Positions 1,483 to 62,305 of a DNA stretch of 64,000 nt are shown piece after piece (position 1 is the first letter of the stretch; each line of letters starts with the position of its first letter). The stretch is from an uncultured Poribacteria bacterium (GTDB lineage Bacteria > Poribacteria > WGA-4E > WGA-3G), in contig OX638351.1 of assembly GCA_951813565.1 (NCBI GenBank), forward strand, positions 1,408,001-1,472,000, in the 5' to 3' direction. The notes beneath the pieces were generated by a model, which was not told the origin of the DNA, made no database searches, and saw only the letters and a list, made by a program, of their open reading frames with translations. The position numbers were made by a program, and so were the translations under genes.

Positions 1483-1782
1483 TATACCATTTCTAAATAA
1501 TAACTTCTCATTAACAAAAACGCGTTCGTAGTCGCGCAATTCATTGCCAAATCAACGCCAAGCGCACTTGGGCGAATACGCCAAATCAACGGTATGAATC
1601 ATGGCGAATGCCGGACGGGGAATGCCAAAAGGCATTCGGACCGTTGATTTGGCGCATTCGTCTTTAGGCACTCCCCGTGTGGTATTCGCCATGACTTGTC
1701 GCCTCGGACATTCTTTCTTCTGTTGATATTCCATTAAATTACAATATGTTAAATGGGACATTGTATTTTTGAATTGGTATTA
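1483..1782. repeat. Nested repeat: MITE-like shell containing a GTAG REP interrupted by a 153-bp nested hairpin insertion
   Basis: Ends tataccatttctaaa...tttgaattggtatta. The REP gtagtcgcgcaattcattgc|gcctcggacatt, intact at 4699, 41581 and 62041, is split here by 1548-1700. Confidence 0.75.
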
Positions 1783-1810
1783 TTTTTAACCCTTTACTTT
1801 TTGTATCGCT

Positions 1811-2830
1811 TTGATAAAAACAGAATCGCAGTTAGAATTATATTTATCGGAACCAACAACTGATGTGATATCGGCAATCGCTTCTTTAGAAGGGGATATC
1901 CTTATTCTCGGTGTTGGTGGGAAAATGGGACCGTCGCTTGCGAAACTGGCAAAACGTGCTATTGATTGTGCGGGCGTCGTTAAAAAGGTTATCGGTGTAT
2001 CCCGTTTTTCAACCGCTGGTATACAGGAATCCCTGCATAAAGTCGGTATTGAAACAATTATCGCGGACCTACTTTCGGAAAACAACCTGCAAAACCTACC
2101 GGAAATTCAAAATGTGATTTTTATGGCAGGCAGGAAGTTCGGTTCAACCGGGAACGAGGATTTAACTTGGGCATTGAACACCTACATGCCAGGACGGATT
2201 GCAGAAAAGTTTCGAGATTCTCGATTGGTTGTTTTTTCAACAGGCAATGTCTATCCGTTGACACCTATTTCACATGGCGGTGCGACAGAAAGTTCCACCG
2301 TTGCGCCAATAGGTGAATATGCCCAATCATGTCTTGGCAGAGAGCGGGTATGTTGTTATTTCTCCTCACAATTCGGAACACCGATGGTGATTCTCCGATT
2401 GAATTATGCAATTGAACTCCGATATGGAATATTACTTGATATAGCAGAAAAAGTTTACACCGGAGAACCTATATCTCTTGAGATGGGAAATGTGAATGTA
2501 ATATGGCAAAGGGATGCAAACGCTATAGCATTGCATTCTTTTACACACTGTCAAAGTCCACCTTTGATCTTAAACGTGACGGGGCCGGAAACTGTTTCTA
2601 TTCGATATTTAGCGATGTGTTTCGGTGGAATTTTCAATAAACCTGTCCATTTTGAGGGCGAGGAAGCAGAAACAGCACTGCTGAGCAATGCTTCGCTATG
2701 TCATCAGTTATTTGGGTATCCGTGTGTGTCTTTAGGTCAAATGATTGAGTGGGTGGCAGAATGGGTTCGGATAGGTGGGGCAATACTGCAAAAACCGACC
2801 CATTTTGAGGTGCGCGATGGTAAATTTTGA
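1811..2830 (+). CDS. NAD-dependent epimerase/dehydratase family protein
   Basis: Rossmann motif GVGGKMG, FSTGNVY, EYAQSCLGRE. Confidence 0.85.
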   Translation: MIKTESQLELYLSEPTTDVISAIASLEGDILILGVGGKMGPSLAKLAKRAIDCAGVVKKVIGVSRFSTAGIQESLHKVGIETIIADLLSENNLQNLPEIQNVIFMAGRKFGSTGNEDLTWALNTYMPGRIAEKFRDSRLVVFSTGNVYPLTPISHGGATESSTVAPIGEYAQSCLGRERVCCYFSSQFGTPMVILRLNYAIELRYGILLDIAEKVYTGEPISLEMGNVNVIWQRDANAIALHSFTHCQSPPLILNVTGPETVSIRYLAMCFGGIFNKPVHFEGEEAETALLSNASLCHQLFGYPCVSLGQMIEWVAEWVRIGGAILQKPTHFEVRDGKF

Positions 2831-2837
2831 CATACAA

Positions 2838-3824
2838 ATGCAAAATAAAGTATTGACAAAAAATGCGAATTCAATTAGTATAGCAAGTGTATTTTTTCTG
2901 ATGTTGGCACTCTTATTTAGAATAGATAGCGCATTCAGCCAACCACATTCTGTGCCGATTGCATTTGCTTCGGATATCAACGGAGACTGGGAGATCTATC
3001 TAACAGATTCCGTTGGAAAGTTGCCTGTGAATCTTACGCTCAATCCTGGAGCGGATTACTATCCAACATGGTCACCAGATGGCACAGAAATTGCTTTTTT
3101 CTCACGGCGCGATGCCAACCACGAAATATATGTGATGCGCGCTGATGGTACGCATCAGAGAAGGTTGACATACCACCCAGCAACAGATAAAGCACCTTCA
3201 TGGGCACCGGATGGCGAACGTTTGGCTTTTAGCTCAAATCGCACAGGTCATTTCAATATCTATCTTTTAGCGTTAGAGAGTGGTGTGGTGGAAAATCTGA
3301 CTGCAAACGTTTTTGAGGATGAAGTGCCGACTTGGTCTCCAGATGGAAAAAGTTTAGTTTTCCATTCAAAACGTCAGTTAAACTGGGACATCTATACTAT
3401 CAATGTTAACACCCGTGAGGAACAACGATTAACACATCAGCCATTGATGGACACCTATCCAGCGTGGTCTCCAGATGAAAAACGTATTGTATATTCTTCT
3501 ATGCGACAAGACGTTGATCAAGCAGACTTTGACCTTTACCTAATGGACGCTGCAGACGGTGGGAACAAAAAACCTCTTACTGATACACCAACAGATGAAG
3601 CGGTTCCAGCGTGGTCACCAGATGGTAGTTTAATCGCTTTTCAGTATGAGGAAGATGGGAGATGGGTAATTCATCTAATGAATGCAGACGGCAGCGGCCG
3701 TCGCGAACTGATTGACAACGGTGCTTGGGCAACACAGCCAAAATGGAAACTTAGTTCCACTATACTACCGATAGAACCGTTACTTCTACAATATCAGCAA
3801 TGGGGTAACCTTAAGACTCCATAG
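2838..3824 (+). CDS. Secreted TolB-like beta-propeller protein (PD40 repeats)
   Basis: Signal-peptide-like N-terminus, repeated PxWSPDG motifs, C-terminal IEP...WGNLK tail. Start set at ATG 2838 (ORF track begins at 2775). Confidence 0.85.
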   Translation: MQNKVLTKNANSISIASVFFLMLALLFRIDSAFSQPHSVPIAFASDINGDWEIYLTDSVGKLPVNLTLNPGADYYPTWSPDGTEIAFFSRRDANHEIYVMRADGTHQRRLTYHPATDKAPSWAPDGERLAFSSNRTGHFNIYLLALESGVVENLTANVFEDEVPTWSPDGKSLVFHSKRQLNWDIYTINVNTREEQRLTHQPLMDTYPAWSPDEKRIVYSSMRQDVDQADFDLYLMDAADGGNKKPLTDTPTDEAVPAWSPDGSLIAFQYEEDGRWVIHLMNADGSGRRELIDNGAWATQPKWKLSSTILPIEPLLLQYQQWGNLKTP

Positions 3825-4646: not shown

Positions 4647-4792
4647 TTATAGTGAAATCTAAAAATAACTGGACATTTTATTAAGGTTAGCGGCGCTTGT
4701 AGTCGCGCAATTCATTGCGCCTCGGACATTTATGGTGTGTTTGAAATCCGCATAAGAACAAAATGTCCAAATAATTATGGGTTTCACTATAA
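4647..4792. repeat. MITE-like element with REP core
   Basis: Inverted ends ttatagtgaaa...tttcactataa; internal gtagtcgcgcaattcattgcgcc at 4699. Confidence 0.7.
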
Positions 4793-8369: not shown

Positions 8370-11300
8370 TTAGTCAACGACAAGTATCTTGCCTACAGCG
8401 TTGGCGCTATTTCCTGCTCCATTAACTGCTTCTAAACGGAACACGTAAAGGCCGCGCGCTACAGCGGTTCCAAATTGATTTTCTAAATTCCATTTAACCT
8501 GTGTGTCATTCCGCTGTCCCAGTGTAATATTGGAATACTTTTTCGAGTAAACCATATCCCCGCTCCAATCATAGATGTAGAGTGTCAATTCCACTGTTTC
8601 TTCCGCAGCGGCATTCAGATCGAAGGAGAAGAATGCGACATCATCTTTGGAATGCCGTAATGGATTCGGCCATCCGAAGGTTTTTCCACGGAAGGAGAAA
8701 GAAACCGACATCGTAACCTCACCGACATCGTAAACAGAGTAGTTACCTGCTTTGTCTGTGACTCGGATATCTAAGTCGTATTCACCCGATCGTGCGGGTA
8801 AAAAGTCTGCCGACCATCGACTCCAGGGTCGTTCTTGCGCATTGCTTTCATCCTCAGCCGGGACGGGTTCAATAGGTTGTCCATCAGGACCTGTTCCAAT
8901 GATTTCCACAAGCCATACACCCGATGCTGGTATAGGTATCTCACCTTCACCTTGGGGACGCGGTCGTGAACCTTGTGGGTCAGCAGCCGTTCCTTCTAAA
9001 GGCACTGCTTCATCGGTAAACTCAGTCTTTCCACCATCGTTGGTCACAATAGCAGTCGGAGATGTGGTTTCATAAAGGAATTCAGTTGTGACTGAACCTT
9101 TAGGTGCAAATCCGAGTAGTTCAGAGTCATTCCCAATGCCGGTAATCGTAACTTGATGTGGGCCTTCAACATTCAATCCGTCTGATTTGAAGACAATGGT
9201 ATCCACACCATTTTGCTGGGTGGTGCCAGAAAGTTCTTGACCGTTAGGATTTCTGACAACGACTTCTGACTGCGATAGATCCACTCCTAAACCTGTGTCA
9301 GATACACTTGCTTGAATAACAACACCACCGGTTGTGGAAACTGCGCTTGGATAATCTTCGGCATTAATGTCTGTAAGCAGCGGCGCGTCATTAATAAGCA
9401 AAGAGTTAGGATCAATCACTGGTGGACTTGTATCGTAGGTAAACACCTTTTCGTAGGATTCTTCTTCATTCCCCGCTTGGTCTTTAGGGTTAACGGTAAT
9501 TTTGTATTCCCCATCGGCAGAACCGTCGTCTGCAAGCGGAACAGTAAGTCGGAAAATAAGGGTCTCCTGTTCCCCAGTTTCATAAGATAGACGACCAGCG
9601 ATTTCATCTGCATTCGGTGAAAGTCGTTCAAAGGTCAACCAATCTTCATCAAGGTTTTCCCAGTCAACTCCAGCTTGGTTATCTGTGATGCCCACACGAA
9701 TTTCTGTCAACGAGTTATTAACCTCAGGTTCAGCCACAATGAGGTGGATCGCATCTGGATTAACTTCTGGGGTTTCCGTATCATACATAAAAGTCAACTT
9801 TTGGACCTCACCTTCCCGACCCGATGAACTAATTGGCGTGAACTCAATCGTATAAACACCGTCTTCAGATCCATCTGTTGCAAGCGGACGGACCAATCTA
9901 TAGATCAACTTGTTGGTCTCACGATGCTGTTGTCCCGCGACCACTTGCTCCGCAGCGTTCAACAAGCGGACCGTTGATAGGTGGCTTTCATCTGCAGTCT
10001 CAAGCATCACTTCAATTTCATCAACTTTTTCATTTGTAAACGCTTCATCTATTGGAGCAGTGCTTGGTGATGTAGATATGACTGCCGGTAAAAGCCTGGA
10101 CAGTAGGAAACTATGCTCAAGGACGGATCTACTTCCGTTCCCTGCTCTGTCTATAGCTTGGACACGAATAATGTACTGTCCATCTGCCACAAGTTGATTT
10201 GTGTTAAGTATCAACTGCGTTTTGCCATTACTGGTAAGTTCGCCAGAGATTTCTACGCCATTGGGATCAATCAATGTTACTGTTGTTACATCCCAATCTA
10301 TACCACTTTCCCCTTCGTCATTCAGATTTACCTGTATCTGCGTTATGTCCTCGGTAAGCTGTGCGCCGTGAGCTGGCACTGTGCTGACAAGGGTTGGCGC
10401 TTGTGTGTCGTATATTATGGGATGTTCGACAGAAAGAACATTCCCCGCTTTATCAGAAAACGCAATTACGACGGTGTACTCTCCATCTCTACTACCATCA
10501 AGCGGCAACGGCTCATCAAGCGTGAGAAAGAGTTGATTGTTAGAATCAGTTGTTATTTTTGTAGGAATGAGGGTCCCATTTTGATTGCGCAAACTAACTT
10601 TCTGATCATCAAGTATAAAGTCTGCAGGTCCAACGTCCTGAAGTGTGAATCGGAATTGCGTCAAACTCTCGCTGATATAAGATACCGGTTGACTTAAGTT
10701 GATCGGTGCAGCGTCCGTTATTTCCGGTTCTTGCGTATCAAGAACGAACTCACGATAGGCGGTATTGCCTTGACGTCCTTTTTTATCAACAGGATAGACA
10801 TATACGGCGTATCTACCGTCGGAACTTCCATCAGTGGAAAGTGTTGCTGGTTCCCAAACAAGTAGGTCAGTTCCATTCGTGGAGGTGGCTCCTGGCACGA
10901 CGTCATCATCAAGGGTTGCCACTATGATGTCCGATCCGGCGTTACTGTCAAAAGATAACCCCGCCCCTGACCGGTCAAGTAAGGTTGCAGCAATGTACAG
11001 ATTGTTTGCATTGACATAAGCAATGTCCCCACTACCTAATGTAATAGTATCACCGATTCTGATAGACTCAACACCTGGCAAAATGAACTCAAGGGTAAAC
11101 GAGAATTGCAATGGATTTTGTACAGCATTCCCCGCTATGTCTTGTGGAGTCACGGATAAAGTATACTGACCGATCTGTGTTAAGTCAGCAAAACTCAGTG
11201 CCATTTGGGAGACGCCATCATCTTCTCGAGTGAGCGGAATTGTTTGATCGTCTGGGTCAATCAATGATACTTGCATATTTGCAAAGTCAACAAGTGTTGC

Positions 11301-14300
11301 TTCGGAAAACTTAATAGTGATAGTACTGATAGATTCAGAAAGTTCGGTAATTTCGTTCGACACAAGTTTCATAGGAGTCCCAGCAGTGTTTACCTCAACT
11401 GACGATACTTGTGGTGCTTTAGAATCGTAAATAAGTGAAAATCGAGAGATCGAGGTATTGCCTGCTCTGTCACTTAGACTGACATTTAGCGAATATGGAC
11501 CATCTACACTTCCATCACTGGCGAACGGTTTGGAAAGTGTTAGATATAGTTGGTTTGTGAGTTCATCGTACGTCCGTGCTGCAGAAACAGGTTTTTCTGC
11601 AGCATCCATCAATGCTATGACTTGAGAGGCTAAATTAAGACCTGCAGACCCAACATCTTCAATGGTGAGGGTGAACCGATTTAATCCGCTACCGATATAG
11701 GAAACAGGATCATGCAATGTCAATGGCTGTGCAGCAGTAATTCGCGGTGCCTGTGTATCATAAATAAACTGTTGGTTGACGACTGTGCCAGAACGTCCAA
11801 CTTTATCCACTGGTGTTACAGCAACATTGTATCGTCCATCGGCACTTCCATCTGTTGGCAGTGGTATGGGGGTCCAAGTCAACTGATTCGTTCCATTAGA
11901 AGTGGTTTTACCAGATACTGAAAGACCTTCGGAATTGGTGACCGTAATAGTTGAACCACCATCTCCGAACGATACACCTACACCGATAGGATCAGTAATT
12001 GTTGCAACTATTCTGGGTATAGAATTGCGGACGTAAACAGCTGAGCCCTGTTTTCCATCAATGGAGACTGAACTGACTGTTGGAAGTGCGGTGTCAAGTC
12101 TAAATTGGTACTGAGTAGCACTCTGAGCAACATTTCCTGCCTTATCTTGCGGAATAACGGCAAGTGTGTAAACACCGCTTTGTGTTAAAGAAACAAAATG
12201 AACCATCAACAGAGACGCGTCACCGTCTTCAAGGTTGATAGGTATTTCTTGTCCGTTTACTCCTGTCAGTCTCACACTGGTATTTTCGAAGTCTACCTGT
12301 GTTGCATCGGTGAACTCAAGCGTGAGACTACTCACGGATTCAGAAATCTCAGTTATTTCGTAAGATGTAAGGTCTACCGAAGTATTGCTTGTATTCGCTT
12401 TCACAGATGATAATCCCGGAACTTCAAACTTTAGTCTAAATGGATAGGAAACCGCTCCTTGTGAAACATTACCTGAAATATCGTGCGGTGTGACAGAAAA
12501 CGTATACAGACCACTTTGAACTAACGAGACAAAGCGAACTATTAACTTAGACCCATCATGTTCTTCAAGAGTGATGGGTATTTCTTGTCCGTTTTCTGTT
12601 GCCAATCTCACTATAGTATTTTCGAAGTCTACCCGAGCCGCATTTGTAAACTGAAGTGTAAAACTGTTAATGGATTCAGAAAGTTCAGTTATCTCATAAG
12701 GTGTAAGGTCTACCGAAGCGTCCGTTGTGTTTGCTTTCACAGACGATAGTCCCGGAACTTCAAACTCAAGTTGGAACGGATAAGGAACAGCACTTTGTGC
12801 GGTATTCCCTGCTTTATCTTGTGGTGTGACAGTGAGTGTGTAGAGACCATTTTGTGTCAAGGAAACAAAACGCACTATCAACTGAGACCCATCATGTTCT
12901 TCAAGAGTGATGGGTATTTCTTGCCCGTTTTCTGTTGCCAATCTCACTATAGTATTTTCGAAGTCAACCTGTGTTGCCTCTGTGAACTGAAGTGTGAAAC
13001 TACTCACGGATTCAGAAAGTTCAGTTATCTCATAAGGTGTAAGGTCTACCGAAGCGTCCGTTGTGTTCGCTTTCACAGACGATAGTCCCGGAACTTCAAA
13101 CTCAAGTTGGAACGGATAAGGAACAGCACTTTGTGCGGTATTCCCTGCTTTATCTTGTGGTGTGACAGTGAGTGTGTAGAGACCATTTTGTGTCAAGGAA
13201 ACAAAACGCACTATCAACTGAGACCCATCATGTTCTTCAAGAGTGATGGGTATTTCTTGTCCGTTTTCTGTTGCCAAACTCACTATAGTATTTTCGATAG
13301 TATTTTCGAAGTCAACCTGTGTTGCCTCTGTGAACTGAAGTGTGAAACTACTCACGGATTCAGAAAGTTCAGTAATCTCATAAGGTGTAAGGTCTACCGA
13401 AGCGTCCGTTGTGTTCGCTTTCACAGACGATAGTCCCGGAACTTCAAACTCAAGTTGGAACGGATAAGGAACAGCACTTTGTGCGGTATTCCCTGCTTTA
13501 TCTTGTGGTGTGACAGTGAGTGTGTAGAGACCATTTTGTGTCAAGGAAACAAAACGCACTATCAACTGAGACCCATCATGTTCTTCAAGAGTGATGGGTA
13601 TTTCTTGTCCGTTTTCTGTTGCCAAACTCACTATAGTATTTTCGATAGTATTTTCGAAGTCTACCTGTGTTGCCTCTGTGAACTGAAGTGTGAAACTACT
13701 CACGGATTCAGAAAGTTCAGTTATCTCATAAGGTGTAAGGTCTACCGAAGCGTCCGTTGTGTTTGCCTTCACAGACGATAGTCTCGGAACTTCAAACTCA
13801 AGTTGGAACGGATAAAGAACAGCACCATGCACAGCAGTGCCTGATATATCTTGAGGTGTTATTGACAATGTATACTTACCACTTTGTGTCAAAGAAACAA
13901 AACGCACTATCAACTGAGACCCATCATGTTCTTCAAGAGTGATGGGTATTTCTTGTCCGTTTTCTGTTGCCAAACTCACTATAGTATTTTCGATAGTATT
14001 TTCGAAGTCAACCTGTGTTGCCTCTGTGAACTGAAGTGTGAAACTACTCACGGATTCAGAAAGTTCAGTAATCTCATAAGGTGTAAGGTCTACCGAAGCA
14101 TCAGATGTGTTTGCCTTCACAGACGATAGTCCCGGAACTTCAAACTCAAGTTGGAACGGATAAGGAACAGCACTTTGTGCGGTATTCCCTGCTTTATCTT
14201 GTGGTGTGACAGTGAGTGTGTAGAGACCATTTTGTGTCAAGGAAACAAAACGCACTATCAACTGAGACCCATCATGTTCTTCAAGAGTGATGGGTATTTC

Positions 14301-17300
14301 TTGTCCGTTTTCTGTTGCCAATCTCACTATAGTATTTTCGAAGTCTACCTGTGTTGCCTCTGTGAACTGAAGTGTGAAACTACTCACGGATTCAGAAAGT
14401 TCAGTTATCTCATAAGGTGTAAGGTCTACCGAAGCGTCCGTTGTGTTTGCCTTCACAGACGATAGTCCCGGAACTTCAAACTCAAGTTGGAACGGATAAA
14501 GAACAGCACCATGCACAGCAGTGCCTGATATATCTTGAGGTGTTATTGACAATGTATACTTACCACTTTGTGTCAAAGAAACAAAACGCACTATCAACTG
14601 AGACCCATCATGTTCTTCAAGAGTGATGGGTATTTCTTGTCCGTTTTCTGTTGCCAATCTCACACTGGTATTTTCGAAGTCTACCCGGGCCACATCTGTA
14701 AACTGAAGTGTAAAACTGTTAATGGATTCAGAAAGTTCAGTTATCTCATAAGGTGTAAGGTCTACCGAAGCGTCCGTTGTGTTCGCTTTCACAGACGATA
14801 GTCCCGGAACTTCAAACTCAAGTTGGAACGGGTAGGACACCGCACCTTGTGCGGCATTGCCGACTCTATCCTGAGGCTTTACTGAAAGTGTATACAAACC
14901 ACCTTGCGTTAGAGAGACAAAACTTGCTGTCAGTTGATCAACACCATTGTTCTCTAAAGTGAGCGAAATCGCAGATGCATCCGGACCTATTAGACTAATC
15001 ACCGTATTTTCAAAGTCAACCTGTGTTGCTTCTACAAAATTCAGGGTAAGTTTGTTGACAGCCTCTGATACATCAGTAATCTGATAAGGTATTAGGTCTA
15101 AAGGTGTCTCAGTATTTAGAGAGACTGAAGATAGTTGCGGTGCTTGTGAATCATAAAAAATGTTGTGAACTGCCTGATACGGATTACCTGCTTTGTCAAC
15201 AAGGTTAATCGTCAGCGTGTATTCGCCATCAGCACTACCATCAGTCGGTAAAGGGGCAGAAAGCGAAAAGAAAAGTTGGTTTATATCATCATGTGTAATT
15301 TGCCCTTGAACAACTTCACCATTTTTGTTTTGAAGTCCAATTGTTTGATCGTCAAGGTCAAGCAACGCTTGCCCAACATCTTCAACAGTGAGTTCAAACT
15401 GCGTCAAACTACCGATATAAGAGATCGGTTGATATAGTGTTATAGGTGTAGCCGCCGTTATGCGGGGCGCTTGGGTATCAAAAATAAATGAGCGATATAC
15501 AACATCACCTATGCGTCCAGCTTTATCTACTGGTGTGACGGCAACTGTATATCGTCCGTCAGCACTGCCATCAGCTGGAAGTGCTGGGGGGGTCCAAGTC
15601 AACTGATTCGTTCCAATGGAAGTAGTAGTCCCGGGTATCGGAAGTCCATCAGCATTACTAACGACAATAGTTGATCCGTCATTACCTAATGCTAACCCGA
15701 CACCGGTTGGTTCTGTGAACGTGGCGATAATGTTCACATCAGCACTATTGACATATATAGTAGCACTGAGTTTGCCATCAATAAGGATGGAACTAACTGC
15801 TGGTAGCACAATATCAAGTCGAAACTGGTATTGAATGGCACTCTGGGCAACATTACCCGATCTATCCTGTGGTGTGACAGAAAGGGTATAGAGACCGCTT
15901 TGTGTTAAGGAAATAAAACGAACTATTAACTGAGATGCCTCATTGTCTTCTTGGGTGATGGGTATCTGTTGCTCGTTTGGTCCTATTAACACAACACTGG
16001 TATTTTCAGGATCAATCCGCATCGCATCTGTGAACTCAAGTGTGAGACTGTTGACAGGTGCAGAAAGCTCAATAATCTCGTGCTGGATAAGCGCTACGGA
16101 AGTATCTACTGTGTTTGCTTTTACAGATGATAAATCTGGAACTTCAAACTCAAGTTGGAATGGGTAAGACACTGCACCTTGTGCGGCATTGCCGACCCTA
16201 TCATGAGGCGTTACTGAAAGTGTATACAAACCTCCTTGTGTCAAGGTAACGAAACTTGCGGTCATTTGGTCAATACCATTATTCTCTAAGGTGAGTGGAA
16301 TGGGAGAACCATTCGGACCGATCAGCGAAACCACCGTATTTTCAAAGTCAACCTGTGTTGCCTCTACAAAATTAATGGTAAGTTTGTTGATAGCTTCAGA
16401 TAGATCGGTAACCTGATAAGGTGTTAGGTTTAACAGCGTCTCGGTATTTAGAGAGACTGAAGATAGTTGCGGTGCTTGTGAATCATAAAAGATGTTGTGA
16501 ACCGCCTGATACGGATTACCTGCTTTGTCAACGAGGATGACATTCAGCGTGTATTCTCCATCAGCACTACCATTAGTCGGTAAAGGAGTGGAGAGGGTGA
16601 AGAAGAGTTGATTGTTAGCATCATGTGTTATTTGACCTTGAACCGCTTCACCATTTTTGTTTTGAAGTTCAATTGTTTGATCATCAAGGTTAAGTAATGC
16701 TGGACCAACATCTTCAACAGTGAGTTCAAACTGCGTCAAACTACCGATATAAGAGATCGGTTGATGCAGTGTTATAGGTGTAGCCGCCGTTATGCGGGGC
16801 GCTTGGGTATCAAAAATAAATGAGCGATATGCAACATTACCTGTGCGTCCGGCATTATCTACTGGTGTGACAGCAACTAAATATCTTCCATCCGCACTGC
16901 CGTCAATTGGAAGCGCTGCTGGTCGCCATGTCAATTGATTTTCATCATTGAATGTTGTGAACCCAGGGACCGGAAGCCCCGTCTCGGTCGTTACAACAAT
17001 CTTGGATTCATCTTCCCCTACAGCTAAGCCACTCCCGGTGGTATCTACTAACGTTGCGATAATTTCTCCGTCACTACCATTGACATAAACAACAGCACCA
17101 CTCTGACCATCAATCAATACTGACGTAACAATAGGAACGGCTATATCCAAATTGAACCTGTAGATAAATGGTGTTTCGGAAACATTGCCGATATTGTCTC
17201 TTGGCGTAACTGTAAGAATATATGTTCCGAGTTTCGCAAGGCTTTGGAAATTAAGCGTTAAAAAGGCAGTGCCGTCATTGCTTCGGTGAACTGCAATTTC

Positions 17301-19976
17301 AGTTCCATCAGGTCCTGTTAAAGAGACCATTGTGTTTTCAAAATCAATGTCACTTGCGTCAAATGCAACATTTATTTGGGAAAACGTATCAGTAACGTTC
17401 GTAGCACTATCGACGGAAAGTTGGAGTTGTGGGTCAGTTACAACTTCAACTGTGCTGATTACTGGAAATTGTGTATCAAATATGAGAGGAAAACTTTGGG
17501 TAAATCGTTTTCCAGAAAAATCAACAAATGTTGCAGTGATAGTGTATGTTCCATCTGCGGTGCCGTTTCGTGGAATTGATGCTTCGGTGCTCCAAGTTAA
17601 CTGATTGTTTGCTGCATCCGATTCAACTTTCGCTTGGGGAACAACGAGACCTTGTGCATTTCTGACAGTTATTGTTGACGCATCAAAATCTATACCTGAA
17701 CCTATATAATTAACAATTTCTACTGTAATATTATCCAAACTACTGACAGTTCCAGTTTCCGGGGTTGTTAATCGCACTTGTGATTGTGTTTGGCTGACCA
17801 GATAGAATTGGCGCCGGACAACTGCTCCAGTGTTGCCTGCCATGTCAGTTGGGGTAACTTCAATAGTGTAGGTGCCATCATCCGAACCGTCTAACGCAAT
17901 CGGTTGCAACAGTGTAAGTGTAGCAGTATCCGTGCCGTTACTTGCAATATTAACAGGCACTTCAACACGGTTCTCTCCGGCACCGCGAATCAACTGAAAA
18001 TTACTATTGACGAAATCAATACCGCTTGTTACTTCATTGAGTTTGACGACAACTTCTGATAGATTTGAAACAGTCTGATTAGCGGCAGGAACTGTTGAAA
18101 CAAGTGTTGGGACTTGCGTGTCGTAAACAACATGGTAAGTGTAAGTCTTCGTATTCCCGAGTGAGTCTGTAGCCTTGACGTTAATCATATAGTTCCCGTC
18201 TTGGCTTCCATCAGTTTTCAGGATAGGTGAATCCAAAATGTAAGTTAGCACGTTATTATTTTTGTCTGGAAATGGTTGACCGGGAATAGCATTAATACCG
18301 CCATCTGGGTTAGACGTTCCAAAAACAATACTGGTAGTTTCCTGTTCACCAGAAAATGCAACACCGGCCCCGAATTCACCATCATTAAAGGTAGCAATAA
18401 ACTGATTTAACGGAAGATTGTAATAAACGGTATCGCCTAAGATGCTAAACGGTTCACCATCCCGTGTTGGTTTTAATGAAACGAGTTCTGGTGCCAGATT
18501 ATCATATAGAAATGAGATTTGAATTGGTGCGGTTTTATTTCCTGCTTTATCGCTCCCAACAATTTCTACAGTATATTGACCATCTTGGAGACCATCTTTT
18601 GCTAACAAGGGAGAGAGGAATTCCCACCTAATTTTATTATCCGAAAGTTGAATTGACCGCCCGAGAACAATACTGCCACCTGGACCCATCACACTTATTG
18701 ATGAATCATCCAAGTTAAGTCCGATATTATCTTCTAACGCTGCTTCCACAAAATTAATCAATCCATTGATACCACTACCGGGAACAAACTCACCTTTATT
18801 GGTAGCCACACTTTTTAAGGTTGGTGCTGCGTTATCAAACGTAAATACACGACTTGAGGTAAGGGCGCCTACGCTCACTGTAACTTCATACGTGCCGTTT
18901 TCTGTTAATTCGTCAATAAGATCACTGAGCGTAAATGTGGTTTTATTAGTGAGGGTGCCCTCCATCTTGGTGCCACCAACATGCCTAATCTGTATCTCTG
19001 TGTTCCTATCAGTGAGATCAATTGGTGTCCCATCGTCTGCTGCTACAGTGAAACTGATGCTTTGAATTGCTGTATTCACAAACATGCCATCTATGAGCGG
19101 TATTGAATCGTTTATTGAGATACCTGTGATAAGCGGGTCTGCCGAGTCAATTGTGATAGCTTCTGTTTTATTACTGCCTTCTACATTTCCGCCTTTGTCT
19201 TTTACCCATAGACTCAAAGTATACTGGCCATCAAAAACAGGTTTAGCGTTGTTGTCCTTGCCATCCCAATAGTAGGTGCCGCTTTCTTTGCTCAATTCAC
19301 TCGGATCAATTGCCCTTTTAATTGGGTCCCCGCCACTGTTTTTTTGTAATTCTAACCATGCCTCGGTAACATCTTCGTCCAAACCACTATAGTGAATAGG
19401 AAACCGTTCCTCCAAAATCCGTGAGAACTCCTTAGCATCTATACTGATGGAAATCTCCGGGGCTTTAGTGTCTAATGTTACCTCTTTTTCCTTGCTCGAA
19501 ATAGGATCTAGCGGATCGCCTTCAGAATCTTTGAGCGGATTGCCATCAGAATCTATGCGCGTAAGGAAGACTTTAATCTTATAATCACCATCTGGAAGCT
19601 GATCATTTCCAATTTTCCCATCCCATATTACTTTTATAGTCTGATTTTTGGATAATGTTTGATCATTTGCTTCGTCAGGACCGCTGGCAATTTTTCTACC
19701 GTCATCTAACTTAATCTCATAGGTATAATTTTGATCTTCATTATCAGTTGTAAAGGTGATGGTCAACTTTTCTTCGACCCCGTTAAAAACGTTGTCCCCG
19801 TTTGCATCTACTTTTAATGAATCTGAAACAAGTCCCGCCCAAGCGGTAGACTGTATAACTAACAGAGCAACAAACAATTGAAAAATGAGAAAGGATGTCC
19901 AACGAAAACCGAATGACAATTTCGTATTCTTTTTGTTGTAGCACAGAACAGATAAACTATTTTTGATTTTTGACAC
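8370..19976 (-). CDS. Giant (3868-aa) secreted Ig-like repeat surface protein with N-terminal FlgD-Ig-like domains and T9SS type-A-like C-terminal domain
   Basis: Signal region, many ~110-aa 'G.YT..V...D.AGN' Ig-like units, C-terminus 'WPNP...LYIYDWSGDMV...WNLENQFG..VARGLYVFRL...GKILVVD'. Confidence 0.85.
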   Translation of the reverse strand: MSKIKNSLSVLCYNKKNTKLSFGFRWTSFLIFQLFVALLVIQSTAWAGLVSDSLKVDANGDNVFNGVEEKLTITFTTDNEDQNYTYEIKLDDGRKIASGPDEANDQTLSKNQTIKVIWDGKIGNDQLPDGDYKIKVFLTRIDSDGNPLKDSEGDPLDPISSKEKEVTLDTKAPEISISIDAKEFSRILEERFPIHYSGLDEDVTEAWLELQKNSGGDPIKRAIDPSELSKESGTYYWDGKDNNAKPVFDGQYTLSLWVKDKGGNVEGSNKTEAITIDSADPLITGISINDSIPLIDGMFVNTAIQSISFTVAADDGTPIDLTDRNTEIQIRHVGGTKMEGTLTNKTTFTLSDLIDELTENGTYEVTVSVGALTSSRVFTFDNAAPTLKSVATNKGEFVPGSGINGLINFVEAALEDNIGLNLDDSSISVMGPGGSIVLGRSIQLSDNKIRWEFLSPLLAKDGLQDGQYTVEIVGSDKAGNKTAPIQISFLYDNLAPELVSLKPTRDGEPFSILGDTVYYNLPLNQFIATFNDGEFGAGVAFSGEQETTSIVFGTSNPDGGINAIPGQPFPDKNNNVLTYILDSPILKTDGSQDGNYMINVKATDSLGNTKTYTYHVVYDTQVPTLVSTVPAANQTVSNLSEVVVKLNEVTSGIDFVNSNFQLIRGAGENRVEVPVNIASNGTDTATLTLLQPIALDGSDDGTYTIEVTPTDMAGNTGAVVRRQFYLVSQTQSQVRLTTPETGTVSSLDNITVEIVNYIGSGIDFDASTITVRNAQGLVVPQAKVESDAANNQLTWSTEASIPRNGTADGTYTITATFVDFSGKRFTQSFPLIFDTQFPVISTVEVVTDPQLQLSVDSATNVTDTFSQINVAFDASDIDFENTMVSLTGPDGTEIAVHRSNDGTAFLTLNFQSLAKLGTYILTVTPRDNIGNVSETPFIYRFNLDIAVPIVTSVLIDGQSGAVVYVNGSDGEIIATLVDTTGSGLAVGEDESKIVVTTETGLPVPGFTTFNDENQLTWRPAALPIDGSADGRYLVAVTPVDNAGRTGNVAYRSFIFDTQAPRITAATPITLHQPISYIGSLTQFELTVEDVGPALLNLDDQTIELQNKNGEAVQGQITHDANNQLFFTLSTPLPTNGSADGEYTLNVILVDKAGNPYQAVHNIFYDSQAPQLSSVSLNTETLLNLTPYQVTDLSEAINKLTINFVEATQVDFENTVVSLIGPNGSPIPLTLENNGIDQMTASFVTLTQGGLYTLSVTPHDRVGNAAQGAVSYPFQLEFEVPDLSSVKANTVDTSVALIQHEIIELSAPVNSLTLEFTDAMRIDPENTSVVLIGPNEQQIPITQEDNEASQLIVRFISLTQSGLYTLSVTPQDRSGNVAQSAIQYQFRLDIVLPAVSSILIDGKLSATIYVNSADVNIIATFTEPTGVGLALGNDGSTIVVSNADGLPIPGTTTSIGTNQLTWTPPALPADGSADGRYTVAVTPVDKAGRIGDVVYRSFIFDTQAPRITAATPITLYQPISYIGSLTQFELTVEDVGQALLDLDDQTIGLQNKNGEVVQGQITHDDINQLFFSLSAPLPTDGSADGEYTLTINLVDKAGNPYQAVHNIFYDSQAPQLSSVSLNTETPLDLIPYQITDVSEAVNKLTLNFVEATQVDFENTVISLIGPDASAISLTLENNGVDQLTASFVSLTQGGLYTLSVKPQDRVGNAAQGAVSYPFQLEFEVPGLSSVKANTTDASVDLTPYEITELSESINSFTLQFTDVARVDFENTSVRLATENGQEIPITLEEHDGSQLIVRFVSLTQSGKYTLSITPQDISGTAVHGAVLYPFQLEFEVPGLSSVKANTTDASVDLTPYEITELSESVSSFTLQFTEATQVDFENTIVRLATENGQEIPITLEEHDGSQLIVRFVSLTQNGLYTLTVTPQDKAGNTAQSAVPYPFQLEFEVPGLSSVKANTSDASVDLTPYEITELSESVSSFTLQFTEATQVDFENTIENTIVSLATENGQEIPITLEEHDGSQLIVRFVSLTQSGKYTLSITPQDISGTAVHGAVLYPFQLEFEVPRLSSVKANTTDASVDLTPYEITELSESVSSFTLQFTEATQVDFENTIENTIVSLATENGQEIPITLEEHDGSQLIVRFVSLTQNGLYTLTVTPQDKAGNTAQSAVPYPFQLEFEVPGLSSVKANTTDASVDLTPYEITELSESVSSFTLQFTEATQVDFENTIENTIVSLATENGQEIPITLEEHDGSQLIVRFVSLTQNGLYTLTVTPQDKAGNTAQSAVPYPFQLEFEVPGLSSVKANTTDASVDLTPYEITELSESVSSFTLQFTEATQVDFENTIVRLATENGQEIPITLEEHDGSQLIVRFVSLTQNGLYTLTVTPQDKAGNTAQSAVPYPFQLEFEVPGLSSVKANTTDASVDLTPYEITELSESINSFTLQFTNAARVDFENTIVRLATENGQEIPITLEEHDGSKLIVRFVSLVQSGLYTFSVTPHDISGNVSQGAVSYPFRLKFEVPGLSSVKANTSNTSVDLTSYEITEISESVSSLTLEFTDATQVDFENTSVRLTGVNGQEIPINLEDGDASLLMVHFVSLTQSGVYTLAVIPQDKAGNVAQSATQYQFRLDTALPTVSSVSIDGKQGSAVYVRNSIPRIVATITDPIGVGVSFGDGGSTITVTNSEGLSVSGKTTSNGTNQLTWTPIPLPTDGSADGRYNVAVTPVDKVGRSGTVVNQQFIYDTQAPRITAAQPLTLHDPVSYIGSGLNRFTLTIEDVGSAGLNLASQVIALMDAAEKPVSAARTYDELTNQLYLTLSKPFASDGSVDGPYSLNVSLSDRAGNTSISRFSLIYDSKAPQVSSVEVNTAGTPMKLVSNEITELSESISTITIKFSEATLVDFANMQVSLIDPDDQTIPLTREDDGVSQMALSFADLTQIGQYTLSVTPQDIAGNAVQNPLQFSFTLEFILPGVESIRIGDTITLGSGDIAYVNANNLYIAATLLDRSGAGLSFDSNAGSDIIVATLDDDVVPGATSTNGTDLLVWEPATLSTDGSSDGRYAVYVYPVDKKGRQGNTAYREFVLDTQEPEITDAAPINLSQPVSYISESLTQFRFTLQDVGPADFILDDQKVSLRNQNGTLIPTKITTDSNNQLFLTLDEPLPLDGSRDGEYTVVIAFSDKAGNVLSVEHPIIYDTQAPTLVSTVPAHGAQLTEDITQIQVNLNDEGESGIDWDVTTVTLIDPNGVEISGELTSNGKTQLILNTNQLVADGQYIIRVQAIDRAGNGSRSVLEHSFLLSRLLPAVISTSPSTAPIDEAFTNEKVDEIEVMLETADESHLSTVRLLNAAEQVVAGQQHRETNKLIYRLVRPLATDGSEDGVYTIEFTPISSSGREGEVQKLTFMYDTETPEVNPDAIHLIVAEPEVNNSLTEIRVGITDNQAGVDWENLDEDWLTFERLSPNADEIAGRLSYETGEQETLIFRLTVPLADDGSADGEYKITVNPKDQAGNEEESYEKVFTYDTSPPVIDPNSLLINDAPLLTDINAEDYPSAVSTTGGVVIQASVSDTGLGVDLSQSEVVVRNPNGQELSGTTQQNGVDTIVFKSDGLNVEGPHQVTITGIGNDSELLGFAPKGSVTTEFLYETTSPTAIVTNDGGKTEFTDEAVPLEGTAADPQGSRPRPQGEGEIPIPASGVWLVEIIGTGPDGQPIEPVPAEDESNAQERPWSRWSADFLPARSGEYDLDIRVTDKAGNYSVYDVGEVTMSVSFSFRGKTFGWPNPLRHSKDDVAFFSFDLNAAAEETVELTLYIYDWSGDMVYSKKYSNITLGQRNDTQVKWNLENQFGTAVARGLYVFRLEAVNGAGNSANAVGKILVVD
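12431..14830 (-). repeat. Intragenic tandem array of ~7 near-identical 336/348-bp units
   Basis: caagttggaacgg recurs at 12767, 13103, 13451, 13799, 14147, 14483 and 14819. Confidence 0.92.
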
Positions 19977-39913: not shown

Positions 39914-39914
39914 A

Positions 39915-43021: not shown

Positions 43022-43102
43022 AAGACGTTAGTTTAGGCGGGGCACAGAGACCCCGCTCTACAATTGTTAATTAAGGTATGATACACACTAAAAGGAAAAA
43101 CC

Positions 43103-45355: not shown

Positions 45356-45364
45356 AAAACAATT

Positions 45365-45520: not shown

Positions 45521-45526
45521 CAATTC

Positions 45527-46945
45527 ATGGAGATTAAAATGAATAAAAGGTTGACACCGCTGGCAGTCCGCCTATTTTTTATTTTTGCATTGTTTGTAAG
45601 CCAAAATTTATTATTTAAAGGAGTTGGTATTGTATCGGCACAGGAACTCGTTTCACTTCGGCCAACTCGTGCCATAGAACTCGCTTTGCAGAACAACGAG
45701 GCGGTGAAAAAGGCGGAAAAAGTAGTGGAACGCGCAAAGGCAAACCTGCGCGTGTCTAAGGCTGTGTACTTGCCACAAGTAGGGATCACCAGCGAATATC
45801 AACGCCAAAAAAATGGCGATTTTAACGAAAGAGATTATCTTACCCGTGCACAGATGAGTGTTATCCTCGCTCAATTTGGTGAAATTCCGAAAGGGCTTGA
45901 CGCGACACAAGAAGAAGTGCGCAAGGCGGAGATAGAATACGAACGTATAAAGAAGGAAACTGTTCACGCCGTTCGAAATCTCTGGCATGACCTTACGCTC
46001 ACACAAGAAGAAATCACGCAACGTCAAGCGATTGAGGTAGAACTCCAGAAAAAACTGAAGAGCACACAACTCAAACACGATAAGAAACGTATTCCTTTTC
46101 TCAGTCGTCTCAATACGGAACTTGAATTGTCTGAACAGCAACTTGATCTCAACAAACTTCAACGACGACTTGACGTGGACACAGCGGAACTCATTCGCCT
46201 GACGGGACTTGACCCGCTGGCGCAAGTTGCTCTCTCACAATCCCTCCCAGATGATGACATAACACTGGATGCCGCCGTTGAACTTGCACTTGCTAATCGG
46301 CTTGACTTGCGCGACTTACAAGGTGATATTGCGCGTCAGGAACGCCTCGTCGTTGAGACAGTGTGGAATCGATTTCCTGAAATCTCTGCTGAAGCACGTT
46401 ACAAAGATCTGCATCTACTATTACAACAACACCAACAAAACCGAACTTGGGATGCAAAGGCGCTATATGATCCGATAATACATGACCGAGAACGGGATGC
46501 CGCGAGCATTTTCGCAACAGACCCACGCACACAAGACGGATGGGAGCTGCGCTTCAACCTCAACATTCCACTATATGATGGGAAAAAGACAGCAAACCTT
46601 CGCTCTATCGAGCTCGCAGAACTTGACAGACTCCAATTGGAATACGTTGAGAAAACGAAACTCATCAAGGTGGCAGTGCGTCGCGATTATCGGGAAGTGG
46701 CAAATGCGAAAGAACGCATGGAAATTGAACAGAAACGGGTGAAAATCTTTGAGCATCAACTAAGGGCAATAGAACAGGCACTTGAAGGCACTGTTGAAAT
46801 ACAGGGGTATCGCGGGTTGACTCTTAACGATGCTTTTCAGGCACAAGCACAATTCACACAGGCGCAACGGGTCTTTTATCAGGCACGCAGAGATTACGCG
46901 AAAGCAAAGGAAAAACTACGGGAAACGATGGCTTGGATAGAGTAA
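45527..46945 (+). CDS. TolC family outer-membrane efflux protein
   Basis: 'AIELALQNN...YLPQV', 'AVELALANRLDL', 'LNIPLYDG' two-repeat OEP architecture. Confidence 0.88.
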   Translation: MEIKMNKRLTPLAVRLFFIFALFVSQNLLFKGVGIVSAQELVSLRPTRAIELALQNNEAVKKAEKVVERAKANLRVSKAVYLPQVGITSEYQRQKNGDFNERDYLTRAQMSVILAQFGEIPKGLDATQEEVRKAEIEYERIKKETVHAVRNLWHDLTLTQEEITQRQAIEVELQKKLKSTQLKHDKKRIPFLSRLNTELELSEQQLDLNKLQRRLDVDTAELIRLTGLDPLAQVALSQSLPDDDITLDAAVELALANRLDLRDLQGDIARQERLVVETVWNRFPEISAEARYKDLHLLLQQHQQNRTWDAKALYDPIIHDRERDAASIFATDPRTQDGWELRFNLNIPLYDGKKTANLRSIELAELDRLQLEYVEKTKLIKVAVRRDYREVANAKERMEIEQKRVKIFEHQLRAIEQALEGTVEIQGYRGLTLNDAFQAQAQFTQAQRVFYQARRDYAKAKEKLRETMAWIE

Positions 46946-52082: not shown

Positions 52083-52263
52083 AATTACTTCTCCTTTTAC
52101 GTGCATTTTATGGTAGATTTGAATTTATTTGGACAGTATCGCTCTGTGAATCAACGCTGAATGCACATAAGGCATTCAGCGTTGATTCACAGGAAATGTG
52201 TCCAATTATTTCCATATTTCACCATTAAATGGATTTTAACACTAAAATTGGCTTATGACGTTA

Positions 52264-60123: not shown

Positions 60124-60133
60124 TTCGTCTTTT

Positions 60134-60267
60134 TCTTGTAGGAGGGGTTTTCAACCCCGATTGTTGAAGATTTTCAACCTTTTTTGTAGGAGGGGTTTTC
60201 AACCCCGATTGTTGAAGATTTTCAACCTTTTTTGTAGGAGAGGTTTTCAACCCCGATTGTTGAAGGT
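60134..60267. repeat. Tandem triplication of a 48-bp REP unit
   Basis: gtaggaggggttttcaaccccgattgttgaag at 60138, 60186 and 60234. Confidence 0.9.
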
Positions 60268-60311
60268 TCACACGCTGAAATCCGATTATATTGTAATAGA
60301 GGAGAATTAGG

Positions 60312-60779
60312 ATGTCAAAAGAGAGTAGACGCTCTTTTTTACAAATCGCCACCGCTTTCATTGGTGGATTAGTGAGTTTAGCTGCCGGTATCCCGTTAAT
60401 CGGATTTGCTATTTCCCCTGCGTGGAAAAAAGGCGAATCGCAATGGGTTGACGTGGGAACGGTAGACCGCCTCAAAAACAGTCGCTTTAAGAAAGTCAAT
60501 TATACGTTCACAGCGAAAGATGGTTGGGTGAAAGCCACAAAGAAACGTTCTGTTTACGTGACGGATGCTGGTAATGGGGAATGGAGTGTCTTTTCACGGA
60601 CCTGCTCACATCTCGGTTGCCTTGTCCGATGGGATGAGAGTAAAGAATCGTTCCTATGCCCATGCCACGGTGCTATTTTTGATAAGACTGGAGCTGTTGT
60701 TGCCGGTCCGCCACCGGAACCGTTGCAGAAACTTGAAGTCAAAGTAGAAAATGGCCTTTTATATGTGAAGGAGGCGTAA
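60312..60779 (+). CDS. qcrA: Rieske iron-sulfur subunit of a cytochrome bc complex
   Basis: Tat motif SRRSFL, CSHLGC and CPCHG. Confidence 0.88.
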   Translation: MSKESRRSFLQIATAFIGGLVSLAAGIPLIGFAISPAWKKGESQWVDVGTVDRLKNSRFKKVNYTFTAKDGWVKATKKRSVYVTDAGNGEWSVFSRTCSHLGCLVRWDESKESFLCPCHGAIFDKTGAVVAGPPPEPLQKLEVKVENGLLYVKEA

Positions 60780-61981
60780 TGAAACAGTTTCTCAATGATC
60801 GCCTCCCATTAGATGGGGTGATGGCGCATCTGCGCAAACCGCTGCCGAAACATATCAATCTGCTTTTTTCGCTCGGCAGTTTAGCGATGTTTCTACTGCT
60901 ACTTCAAGCAGCGACAGGGGCATTTTTAGCGCTATCCTATTCTCCTTCGCCAGACCACGCCCATAATGCAGTCAATTATATCACAAACGAGGTGCCGTTC
61001 GGTAACTTTGTGCGCGGTTTGCACCATTGGGGTGCCAGTGCGATGGTCATCATTGTCTTTCTGCATATACTCCGCGTTGTGCTTTACGGATCATACAAAG
61101 CACCGCGTGAACTCACCTGGGTTGTTGGCGTTCTGCTGCTATTGGTTACGCTCGGTTTCGGATTTACAGGTTATTTGCTGCCATGGGACGAAAAAGCGTA
61201 TTGGGCAACGGTTGTCGGAATTGAAATCTCAAGCACCGCGCCTATATTAGGCGATGTAGTCGCAAAGGTTATGCGTGGCGGTGCCGAGGTTGGCGCGGTG
61301 ACGCTGTCTCGGTTTTACGCACTGCATACGATTTGGTTGCCGTGGTTGGCTTTCGGTCTGGTCGGTGTGCACCTTTTCCTCGTCCGATTCTACGGTTCCT
61401 CAGGTTTACCGAAGAACACACCGGAGGAGATGAAAACCGGCAAACCGTTCTATCCAGATCAGGTATTTGAAGATGTTGTTGGCATGCTAATTCTCTTTGT
61501 AATACTTGCTTGCGCTGCGCTGTTCGCTCCTGTTCCGCTTGAAGATGTCGCAGACCCGACAAATGCAGATTACGATCCTCGTCCTGAATGGTATTTCTTG
61601 TTCCTATTTCAACTGCTCAAATACTTCCAAGGTCCCTTTGAAATTCTTGGGACATTTGTTATCCCGACAGTCGGCATGTTGCTACTGTTATTCTTGCCTT
61701 TCTTAGACAGAAGTGAGCGCAAAGTTCTTTGGAAACGCCCAATTGCAATGACGGTCACAAGTGTCTGTGTTGTAGCGATTGTAGGATTAACAATCCTCGG
61801 TGCGACTGCGCCGAAACTTGAAACGCAGGAGGAAGCAGCACAACCAGCAGATGAAGTGCAGCAGGTCATCCCACCTGATACCGAAACAGAAAATGTTGAC
61901 GAAGGGGAAGATGTGTTTGATTTCCAATTGACTGAGGAAGAAATTGAAGGGGCGAGAGAAGTGGGAGAAGAATCGGAATAG
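60779..61981 (+). CDS. qcrB: Cytochrome b (b6 plus subunit IV fused)
   Basis: RGLHHWGAS, GYLLPWD, RFYALH, RPEWYFL, LPFLD. Confidence 0.9.
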   Translation: MKQFLNDRLPLDGVMAHLRKPLPKHINLLFSLGSLAMFLLLLQAATGAFLALSYSPSPDHAHNAVNYITNEVPFGNFVRGLHHWGASAMVIIVFLHILRVVLYGSYKAPRELTWVVGVLLLLVTLGFGFTGYLLPWDEKAYWATVVGIEISSTAPILGDVVAKVMRGGAEVGAVTLSRFYALHTIWLPWLAFGLVGVHLFLVRFYGSSGLPKNTPEEMKTGKPFYPDQVFEDVVGMLILFVILACAALFAPVPLEDVADPTNADYDPRPEWYFLFLFQLLKYFQGPFEILGTFVIPTVGMLLLLFLPFLDRSERKVLWKRPIAMTVTSVCVVAIVGLTILGATAPKLETQEEAAQPADEVQQVIPPDTETENVDEGEDVFDFQLTEEEIEGAREVGEESE

Positions 61982-61984
61982 TTC

Positions 61985-62305
61985 GTAGGTTGGGTTGAGG
62001 CATGAAACCCATAGGCGTCAATTTAAGAAATAACGCGTTTGTAGTCGCGCAATTCATTGCGCCTCGGACATTCTCTTGTGGGAGGGTTTTGAAAGCCCGA
62101 TTTTGTAACCCTCTACCTGTTATATCCGAATCAGCGCTAAATGCGCTTTTGGCATTTGTCTGGGTTGAAAACCCGCAGCATGCCAAACGCGCATGCTGCG
62201 TTGATTCGCTCCCACAAGAGGATATATTCTTAAACTGACGCCCGCTGAATGCCACAAAGGCATTCATAGCGTTGATTAGGTAGAGTAGAACGAAACCCAA
62301 CTTTG
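61985..62305. repeat. REP/MITE cluster with three hairpin insertions
   Basis: ggcgtcaatttaagaa...ttcttaaactgacgcc shell; REP at 62041; insertions near 62128, 62174 and 62243. Confidence 0.7.

Follow-up and report, generated by a model that had tools for sequence, protein, structure and literature searches.

The small dispersed repeats (SDRs) of Nostoc, which Elhai et al. are said to have described in 2008, are reportedly very small, repeated and precisely inserted DNA modules, and we know of no enzyme that moves them. The GC clusters of yeast mitochondria are GC-rich palindromic modules of 30 to 50 bases that are apparently mobile and come with short duplications; again, no responsible enzyme is known to us. 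Insertion sequences of the IS200/IS605 family form clean joins with their targets and have gene-less derivatives. In the available text of a citing paper (PMC4390886), one of the Nostoc repeats, SDR5, is described as entering HIP1 precisely, with its third base on one side and the fourth on the other. Repetitive extragenic palindromes (REPs) are described, in the available portions of four sources, as imperfect hairpins of 20 to 40 bases with an unpaired conserved foot tag, intergenic, in hundreds of copies and in tandem arrays (PMC3733652, PMC3333891, PMC8266576, PMC6006769), and the first of these mentions REP dimers inserted in other palindromes. Here we describe a hairpin of 33 to 36 bases with a fixed seven-base tail, referred to as the unit, which is among the smallest DNAs that are apparently mobile. 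In two genera of sponge-symbiont Poribacteria, it has entered intergenic repeats and its own copies with no duplication of the target. It was studied in a 64,000-nucleotide stretch (the window; G000:C1:1408001-1472000) of the 5.43-Mb, single-contig genome (G000; 43% G+C) of an uncultured Poribacteria bacterium.

Like the Nostoc SDRs, the unit is a dispersed repeat of very small size that inserts precisely and has empty counterparts, and no sequence relation between the two is known to us; compared by description only, from the part of the published account available, the unit differs in consisting of a hairpin and a fixed tail, in targeting several REP families as well as itself, and in forming nests of five levels. 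The yeast GC clusters, organellar and GC-rich, are likewise set apart by description. With REPs and bacterial interspersed mosaic elements (BIMEs), the unit shares a short imperfect hairpin, a tag at one foot, an intergenic position, hundreds of copies and tandem arrays, and it agreed with REPs in the traits tested (short imperfect hairpin, extragenic, high copy number). However, its tag is the seven-base GTTGATT/AATCAAC rather than GTAG, GTGG or CGTC, no cognate REP-associated tyrosine transposase (RAYT) was found, and it is single rather than an inverted dimer, with defined ends and precise insertion into other REPs and into itself. Hence the unit works like a REP or a Nostoc SDR, but its tag and the missing cognate RAYT separate it from REPs proper. 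As in IS200/IS605 elements, a hairpin lies beside a short conserved end and the target is not duplicated (PMC6006769, the available text of which does not mention Poribacteria); in contrast, the unit has one hairpin and not two ends, its target is a dinucleotide and not a tetranucleotide, and the IS605-type elements of G000 have ends unrelated to it. Neither terminal inverted repeats nor target duplication, the traits of a miniature inverted-repeat transposable element of a DDE transposase, were found in the unit. Literature searches, with most subscription journals outside their coverage, returned no description of the unit family. The term "undescribed" used in an initial annotation of the window therefore holds for the sequence family but not for the kind of element, since very small, precisely inserting repeats such as Nostoc SDR5 are known.

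Anatomy, copy number and distribution of the unit

The unit is composed of G or CG, a hairpin of 9 to 10 bp, GTTGATT, and one or two variable bases. In hairpin-first order, it reads G, a 4-base arm, ATGC, a 6-to-8-base loop, GCAT, a 4-to-6-base arm, C, GTTGATT and two variable bases. One strand carries AATCAAC(G) at the foot, the opposite strand has variable target bases there, and no GTAG, GTGG or CGTC tag is present. The ends first proposed, CG..TTGATT(T/C), fit the copies partially, as does G..TTGATT plus two bases, and the choice of boundary shifts unit coordinates by 1 to 2 bases. With a stricter parser, which overlooks units interrupted by a second (CATG) family, 634 units in 419 clusters were recovered from G000, 588 of them 34 or 35 bases long, and length was kept at 34 to 36 despite two different internal layouts. 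The variable end bases were TG in 387 units, CA in 110, CC in 44, CG in 38, TA in 29, TC in 14 and others in 12. In 376 of the 634 units, whose hosts are unrelated to one another, the right boundary was the same, TG|G (the bar marks the junction). Nineteen units, nested ones included, lie in the window together with three members of the second family; the hairpin-plus-tail pattern matched 10 times in the window and not once in 100 dinucleotide shuffles, and Rfam at its gathering score gave no match to structured RNA families there. Genome-wide, 544 of 2358 GTTGATT words were preceded by a perfect stem of at least 7 bp, compared to 0.2 to 0.8% for four control heptamers, and the most frequent 9-mer was AAATCAACG (n=817).

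The tail letters were invariant while the stem letters drifted in compensating pairs. In the 634-unit parse, arms paired as CAGC/GCTG (134), CCAA/TTGG (106), CTGA/TCAG (28) and CCGA/TCGG (27), and stem cores as ATGC/GCAT (541) and ATAC/GTAT (36), tallies that count copies and not events; in the sister genus, some copies had a fully changed core with fold and tail kept. The paired arms could reflect selection or the copying of one arm from the other. Folding z-scores of simple copies ranged from -2.6 to -4.2, and that of a mismatched copy at 42949 was -1.1. Left and right halves from different variants were combined in hybrid units, and G000 contained 120 double tails and one triple tail. At one locus of another genome (L087; G004:C45), a unit is followed by three tandem 8-base copies of the tail.

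All 40 genomes of the host genus carried the unit (7 to 494 copies), as did, with at least 5 copies, 47 of 65 genomes of the sister genus (maximum, 211); the other 18 had 3 copies or fewer. Ten copies were found in one further genus of the family, 0 to 2 in six genomes of three other genera, and 0 to 3 in 24 genomes from the order's remaining families. When public genomes were scanned for the unit pattern, at least 80 loci were returned; among the matches listed, 75 of 80 were titled Candidatus Poribacteria, and the 5 non-Poribacteria loci had no extended stems. The plasmids and phages searched gave no match, and 47 viral-contig matches had no extended stems and were put down to chance. An apparent lack of the unit in the sister genus, together with a hint of horizontal transfer in genome G139, was likewise rejected; both were artefacts of requiring a TGG ending.

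Insertion at C|G, self-nesting and empty sites

Excision of G..GTTGATT plus two bases left an exact empty 20-mer in 51 of 248 contexts, compared to 4 when CG..TTGATT was excised. With tandem junctions set aside, 28 contexts remained, representing 7 distinct precise sites and 209 copies; six of these sites were C|G and one was C|C, and target duplication was seen at none. With at least seven precise sites that have exact empty versions in the genome, an ultra-small, separately inserted unit, as first proposed, is borne out. At other junctions, 1 to 4 target bases were replaced (CT at 31540; TA at 42949), so that the original claim stands for the lack of duplication and falls for uniformly clean insertion. 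In the sister genus, two to four loop bases were replaced and the base before CG was often G; the C may therefore belong to the element.

The unit prefers C|G and host hairpins. The flank was repeated DNA in 193 of 260 contexts, versus 35% of non-coding CG sites, and most of the remaining contexts resembled decayed REPs when judged by eye. The target logo was fixed only at C|G, with a lean toward CC and no tetranucleotide. In several REP families, insertions occupied loop, stem or foot, and in the unit itself they occupied loop or tail; a frequent class lay at the inverse REP tag, CC|TA or CC|CA, and at many sites, a REP half was joined to unrelated DNA. ATG-started open reading frames (ORFs) of at least 150 amino acids cover 78% of the genome and were overlapped by 6 of the 634 units, 3 of which sit at most 19 bases from the assumed start, in agreement with the earlier remark that no copy lies inside a coding sequence.

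Because insertion at C|G regenerates C|G at the left junction, where re-insertion occurs, units formed 61 head-to-tail arrays of 2 to 9 units, in which 75 of 95 neighbours differed. Self-nesting was likewise recognized from the start, but the supposed maximum of three levels at 38052 was too low: four levels were resolved at 38053-38181 and five at 1548-1700, the extra levels being due to interleaved copies of the second, CATG-headed family. Peeling 1548-1700 restored a REP junction with 37 occurrences in the genome, and several intermediate junctions in the nest peels had no exact empty copy, consistent with small target losses. The CATG family (26 to 28 bases) has a hairpin core common to the unit, and 96 of its 100 simple copies follow AAT or AGT, the left-arm sequence of such hairpins. 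Insertion is almost exclusively into the left arm of these hairpins, where target bases complete a TGATT tail on the 3' side of the CATG-family hairpin. The idea that an autonomous element has this family as one end and the unit as the other was rejected; no such element was present among the multi-copy families listed. In the sister genus, a short module, TTGCGGCGTAC..GTGCAT, occurs within a number of different REPs and in turn receives insertions of the unit (L354, L360, L365, L367, L375, L379, L380 and L383); it is possibly a third micro-element family.

The unit also spreads within its hosts, since 238 of the 634 copies sat in REP-plus-unit blocks with identical 15-base flanks on both sides. 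Given these blocks and the 7 precise sites, the number of independent insertions is far below the number of copies, with founding events perhaps in the tens rather than the hundreds. Much of the copy number stems from blocks copied whole, and in this respect the initial interpretation was overstated. At 45390, an element of ~135 bases occupies the orthologous intergenic spot in G002, G012 and G017 with its REP unsplit, and comparison with these genomes defined an insert of precisely 35 bases at C|G. The element was present at this locus in 3 of the 19 relatives fetched and absent from the other 16. The filled element-plus-REP block has three copies in G000, and conversion between copies could therefore have filled the site. 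About 800 kb from four relatives yielded two empty orthologous sites (45390 included) and one shared filled site, a low recovery because intergenic DNA turns over fast. At eight sites (window 31400-46000), no empty allele was found among the listed alignments of contigs, which drop rare variants, of 4 public runs from the same or a very near species; none of these contigs with long flanks spanned an empty site, and the skips listed, with a short side of ~20 bases, fit other REP copies. The comparison of filled and empty sites that had been recommended thus gave empty sites in three relatives and none among these runs. The unit is thus mobile over evolutionary time, while these runs gave no sign of present-day movement.

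Search for the enzyme and explanations of spread

G000 has five IS605-type TnpA genes and five RAYT-like genes, three of the latter intact (G000:C1 242008-242496, 3097971-3098471 and 5070797-5071330). Every RAYT of the genus has its own host REP at its flanks, and for each target REP family a RAYT of its own exists somewhere in the genus. A search for a RAYT or recombinase gene flanked by the same hairpin had been recommended; no dedicated one was found among 112 RAYT/TnpA frames from 105 fetched loci (91 from the genus, with a flank reach of 250 bases, and 21 from 20 chosen loci of the sister genus), nor was any of the 37 ORFs flanked on both sides by units a conserved candidate. A cas1 gene flanked by units was rejected as not conserved. 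In the sister genus, 2 of 21 Y1 frames were flanked on both sides by units, as passengers inside other REPs. An apparent link in G139 and G126 was rejected; the unit lies in the loop of that RAYT's REP, which is uninvaded beside related RAYT genes in other genomes. Of the 40 genomes of the genus, 36 had Y1 genes, as did 64 of the 65 in the sister genus. Reverse transcriptase occurred in 18 of 40 genus genomes and Cas1 in 29 of 40. IS110 recombinases gave no match in G000 (control matches in 6 of 14), and the IS91 Y2 search gave none in the 40 genus genomes, its positive control having no match anywhere. A single tyrosine recombinase was found. None of the multi-copy insertion sequences listed for G000 had ends like the unit, and 15 hits in a HUH-motif scan revealed no further HUH protein. 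In a strand-orientation test, the GC skew of the assembly was not clean and the resident IS605 control had no clear bias; cumulative skew of G000 had no clean two-replichore shape.

Several further observations concern the resident enzymes. The family contains at least 12 RAYT subtypes (~155 to 250 amino acids), each flanked by its own REP family (L061-L100, L267-L306, L384-L403) with GTAG/GTGG tags and also TAG-, CAG- or AAG-footed hairpins; in G000, many REP families are retained although the RAYT that belongs to them is missing. G000 also has ~28 tnpB copies beside its five tnpA, and three IS607-like copies. In IS605-type copies at G000:C1:228440 and elsewhere, left-end guide and target covary (AAAC/TTAG, AAAT/TTAA). 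A stand-alone reverse transcriptase adjoins cas1 and a 54-repeat CRISPR array in a type III locus (G000:C1:3988991-3996433), and similar loci occur in at least 7 relatives.

The explanation we tentatively prefer, while holding it as possible rather than probable, is that the unit is non-autonomous, that REP-type HUH nucleases acting in trans move it as a single strand, and that host REPs then carry it along. A Y1, RAYT-like nuclease would cut folded single-stranded DNA after C and join the unit into the cut by strand transfer. AACG, the tetranucleotide at the stem foot on the tail-first strand, may act as a guide. In the available text on RAYTs, guide positions 3 and 4 pair with the cut dinucleotide and a change of guide retargets the enzyme, e.g., GTGG to C|C (PMC8266576); by this rule, AACG predicts a cut at C|G, the main target. 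After insertion, the guide pairing would show up as two extra base pairs of the stem. Cuts at other C|N steps, or exchange between copies that reside in different REPs, would account for imprecise junctions, and a limited number of founding insertions would be followed by host REP dispersal that copies the REP-plus-unit composite. The lack of duplication and the precise G..GTTGATT-TG insert at C|G favour this reading, as do the empty orthologous site in three relatives, the compensating stem changes (including the fully changed core in the sister genus), the choice of REPs with RAYTs of their own as targets, and the widespread Y1 genes, unlike reverse transcriptase or Cas1. Escherichia coli TnpA-REP cuts single-stranded DNA at C|T, the inverse tag included, and the CC|TA or CC|CA class of units occupies this kind of site; the available text of the same source also gives a nick-primed strand-transfer model for tandem REP growth (PMC3333891). 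RAYT cutting and strand transfer are reported in vitro there, with the in-cell mechanism stated as unknown (PMC3333891, PMC8266576).

A number of results weigh against RAYT-type transfer. C|G is not among the RAYT cut sites given in the available text of the two sources (PMC3333891, PMC8266576), and the guide rule fails for the second boundary, which is C|C on the tail-first strand. On the hairpin-then-tail strand of G000, G.T exceeded A.C pairs 32 to 12 (p=0.004), an excess that points to the strand opposite to that of the guide model; the count in other genomes was 7 to 7, and REP controls had no signal. All 27 filled inverse-tag sites read CAC and none TAC; since TAC empties outnumber CAC in two of three host families at the inverse tag, this is not what simple C|T insertion gives. 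Losses of 1 to 4 target bases differ from the clean joins of IS200/IS605. Moreover, the unit was the RAYT's own REP in 0 of the 112 frames and flanked both sides within 250 bases in 0 of the 91 Y1 frames of the genus. Finally, Y1 presence did not predict copy number: G133, G131 and G137 had 4 to 14 profile matches and 0 to 2 units, and G023, G010 and G001 had 75 to 136 units and no RAYT profile match.

Copy-in by repair is a less likely account, though one to be taken seriously. Here, the RAYT of the host REP, or a hairpin nuclease, would nick or break the DNA at a host hairpin, and the lesion would be repaired by template switching onto another copy via 1 to 3 bases of microhomology, and the unit would be selfish through its fold, with no enzyme of its own. 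The junctions with replaced target bases, the hybrid units, the truncated outer unit at 41624 and the many REP halves joined to unrelated DNA are all in line with such repair, as is possible conversion at 45390 given its three filled blocks; the constant TG|G boundary, the held length and the invariant tail, by contrast, look like ends defined by a protein.

Those same fixed features, tail and length, suit a dedicated enzyme outside the tested families that recognizes a hairpin with a 3' tail, a layout like the right end of IS200/IS605 or an oriT nick site, and that moves both the unit and the CATG family. We regard this as an unlikely but reasonable candidate. It draws on the shared core of the CATG family and the placement of that family's simple copies after AAT or AGT, on a family-wide yet patchy spread (0 to 211 copies in the sister genus), and on the wobble asymmetry favouring the hairpin-then-tail strand, but the insertion-sequence listing, the HUH-motif scan and the ORFs between units each failed to supply a candidate, and viral contigs, phages and plasmids held no true copy. 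In a broader form that we also consider doubtful, the unit would represent a new class of single-strand transposons below 40 bases, in which one hairpin and tail serve as both ends and the element's own foot acts as a DNA guide by pairing with the target C|G; the enzyme would lie outside the Y1, Y2, IS110, Cas1 and reverse-transcriptase families and would also move the 26-to-28-base sister family and other Poribacteria micro-elements.

That the unit is a passive module, a fixed part of larger mosaic (BIME-like) repeats that moves only with them, is very improbable. The identical-flank blocks, the small number of precise sites and the lack of an empty allele among the conspecific runs would fit; however, hosts and positions differ, with other hosts again in the sister genus, nests of up to five levels keep a consistent order, and empty orthologous sites exist, including 45390 in three relatives. 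These points support the original view that the unit is no fixed part of one larger element. Least credible of all is RNA-templated or Cas1-type insertion, in which nicks would be filled with a hairpin RNA copied by reverse transcriptase, or a piece of spacer length would be inserted by Cas1-Cas2: the unit is as long as a CRISPR spacer and lies on both sides of cas1 at the reverse transcriptase-Cas1 locus of G000, but reverse transcriptase was not found in G034, G006, G017 and G012 (218 to 487 copies) nor Cas1 in G006, G017 and G016, 0 of 7 related loci had more than one unit, the CRISPR repeats are unrelated to the unit, its hairpin is in no array, and Cas1 integration duplicates the target.

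Features of the window and significance of the family

The twelve ranges listed in the initial annotation all carry the unit, with coordinates agreeing to 1 to 2 bases (Table 1), and the REP said to be intact at 4699, 41581 and 62041 and split at 1528-1547/1701 was confirmed as such. At 41623-41708, the unit is present, with the outermost copy lacking its right half.

Table 1. Units, nests and host REPs in the window
Feature	Positions	Strand	Details
Unit nest in GTAG-tagged REP, five levels	1548-1700	-	Order: unit (1548-1700) > CATG family (1572-1693) > unit (1582-1676) > CATG family (1600-1662) > unit (1617-1651, +); stepwise removal restores REP
Host GTAG REP	1528-1712	+	Split at C|G close to 3' foot of stem (1528-1547/1701)
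Host REP, intact (empty) copy	4699-4730	+	
Host REP, intact (empty) copy	41581-41612	+	
Host REP, intact (empty) copy	62041-62072	+	
Unit in loop of TAGCACC-type REP	31539-31572	-	CT of target replaced
Unit at inverse tag of REP	33772-33805	-	CA-ended class
Unit in loop of GGCGAGG-type REP	36565-36599	-	
Simple unit in loop of TCAGTCCC-type REP	37968-38001	+	Precise at C|G
Four-level nest	38053-38181	+	Unit (38053-38181) > unit (38067-38161) > unit (38094-38153) > CATG family (38108-38135)
Three-level nest	41624-41709	+	41624 > 41638-41709 > 41666-41701; outer unit without right half
Unit in loop of GTAGGTGCGG REP	42949-42982	+	TA of target replaced
35-base unit	45390-45424	+	Precise at C|G; REP within ~135-base terminal-inverted-repeat element
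Double-tailed unit	52147-52190	.	Perfect palindrome, 19-bp stem
Degenerate unit	62129-62155	-	One tail change; overlooked in initial annotation
Unit at foot of GTGGGAG REP	62175-62208	+	CG-ended; target C|C
36-base unit	62244-62279	+	AG-ended

Other copies of the TAGCACC-type REP carry CT at the joint 31539-31574. The terminal-inverted-repeat element at 45367-45537, AGGACTTACG..CGTAAGTCCT, measures ~135 bases minus the unit, was at its locus in 4 of the 20 genomes compared, and has ends resembling those of a resident multi-copy transposase family. A GTAGGAGG REP forms three tandem 48-base copies at 60132-60275. No transposase was found among the 35 window ORFs scanned. The genes of the window encode mostly ABC permeases, extracytoplasmic function (ECF) sigma factors and enzymes; they include one for a 3868-amino-acid protein with tandem bacterial Ig-like repeats (8370-19976; period, 336 to 348 bases) and, at 28645-50958, a cluster of at least 8 paralogous ABC-2/DUF3526 permease genes, accompanied by genes for ECF sigma factors and for an efflux protein of the outer membrane.

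To the initial annotation, the present analysis adds data from the sister genus, a survey of 112 RAYT frames, the resolution of five nest levels, a classification of the junctions, and a guide-based prediction together with the evidence against it. The spread of REPs and other 20-to-40-base repeats is a standing question. In the unit family, the ends are defined, recent copies run to hundreds, empty sites exist, stem and tail vary naturally, and copy number ranges from 0 to 494 over 105 genomes; with three intact RAYTs in one genome, these features make that question testable with short oligonucleotides. If the unit is instead moved by a separate enzyme, such an enzyme would insert a 35-base cargo at a dinucleotide without duplication.

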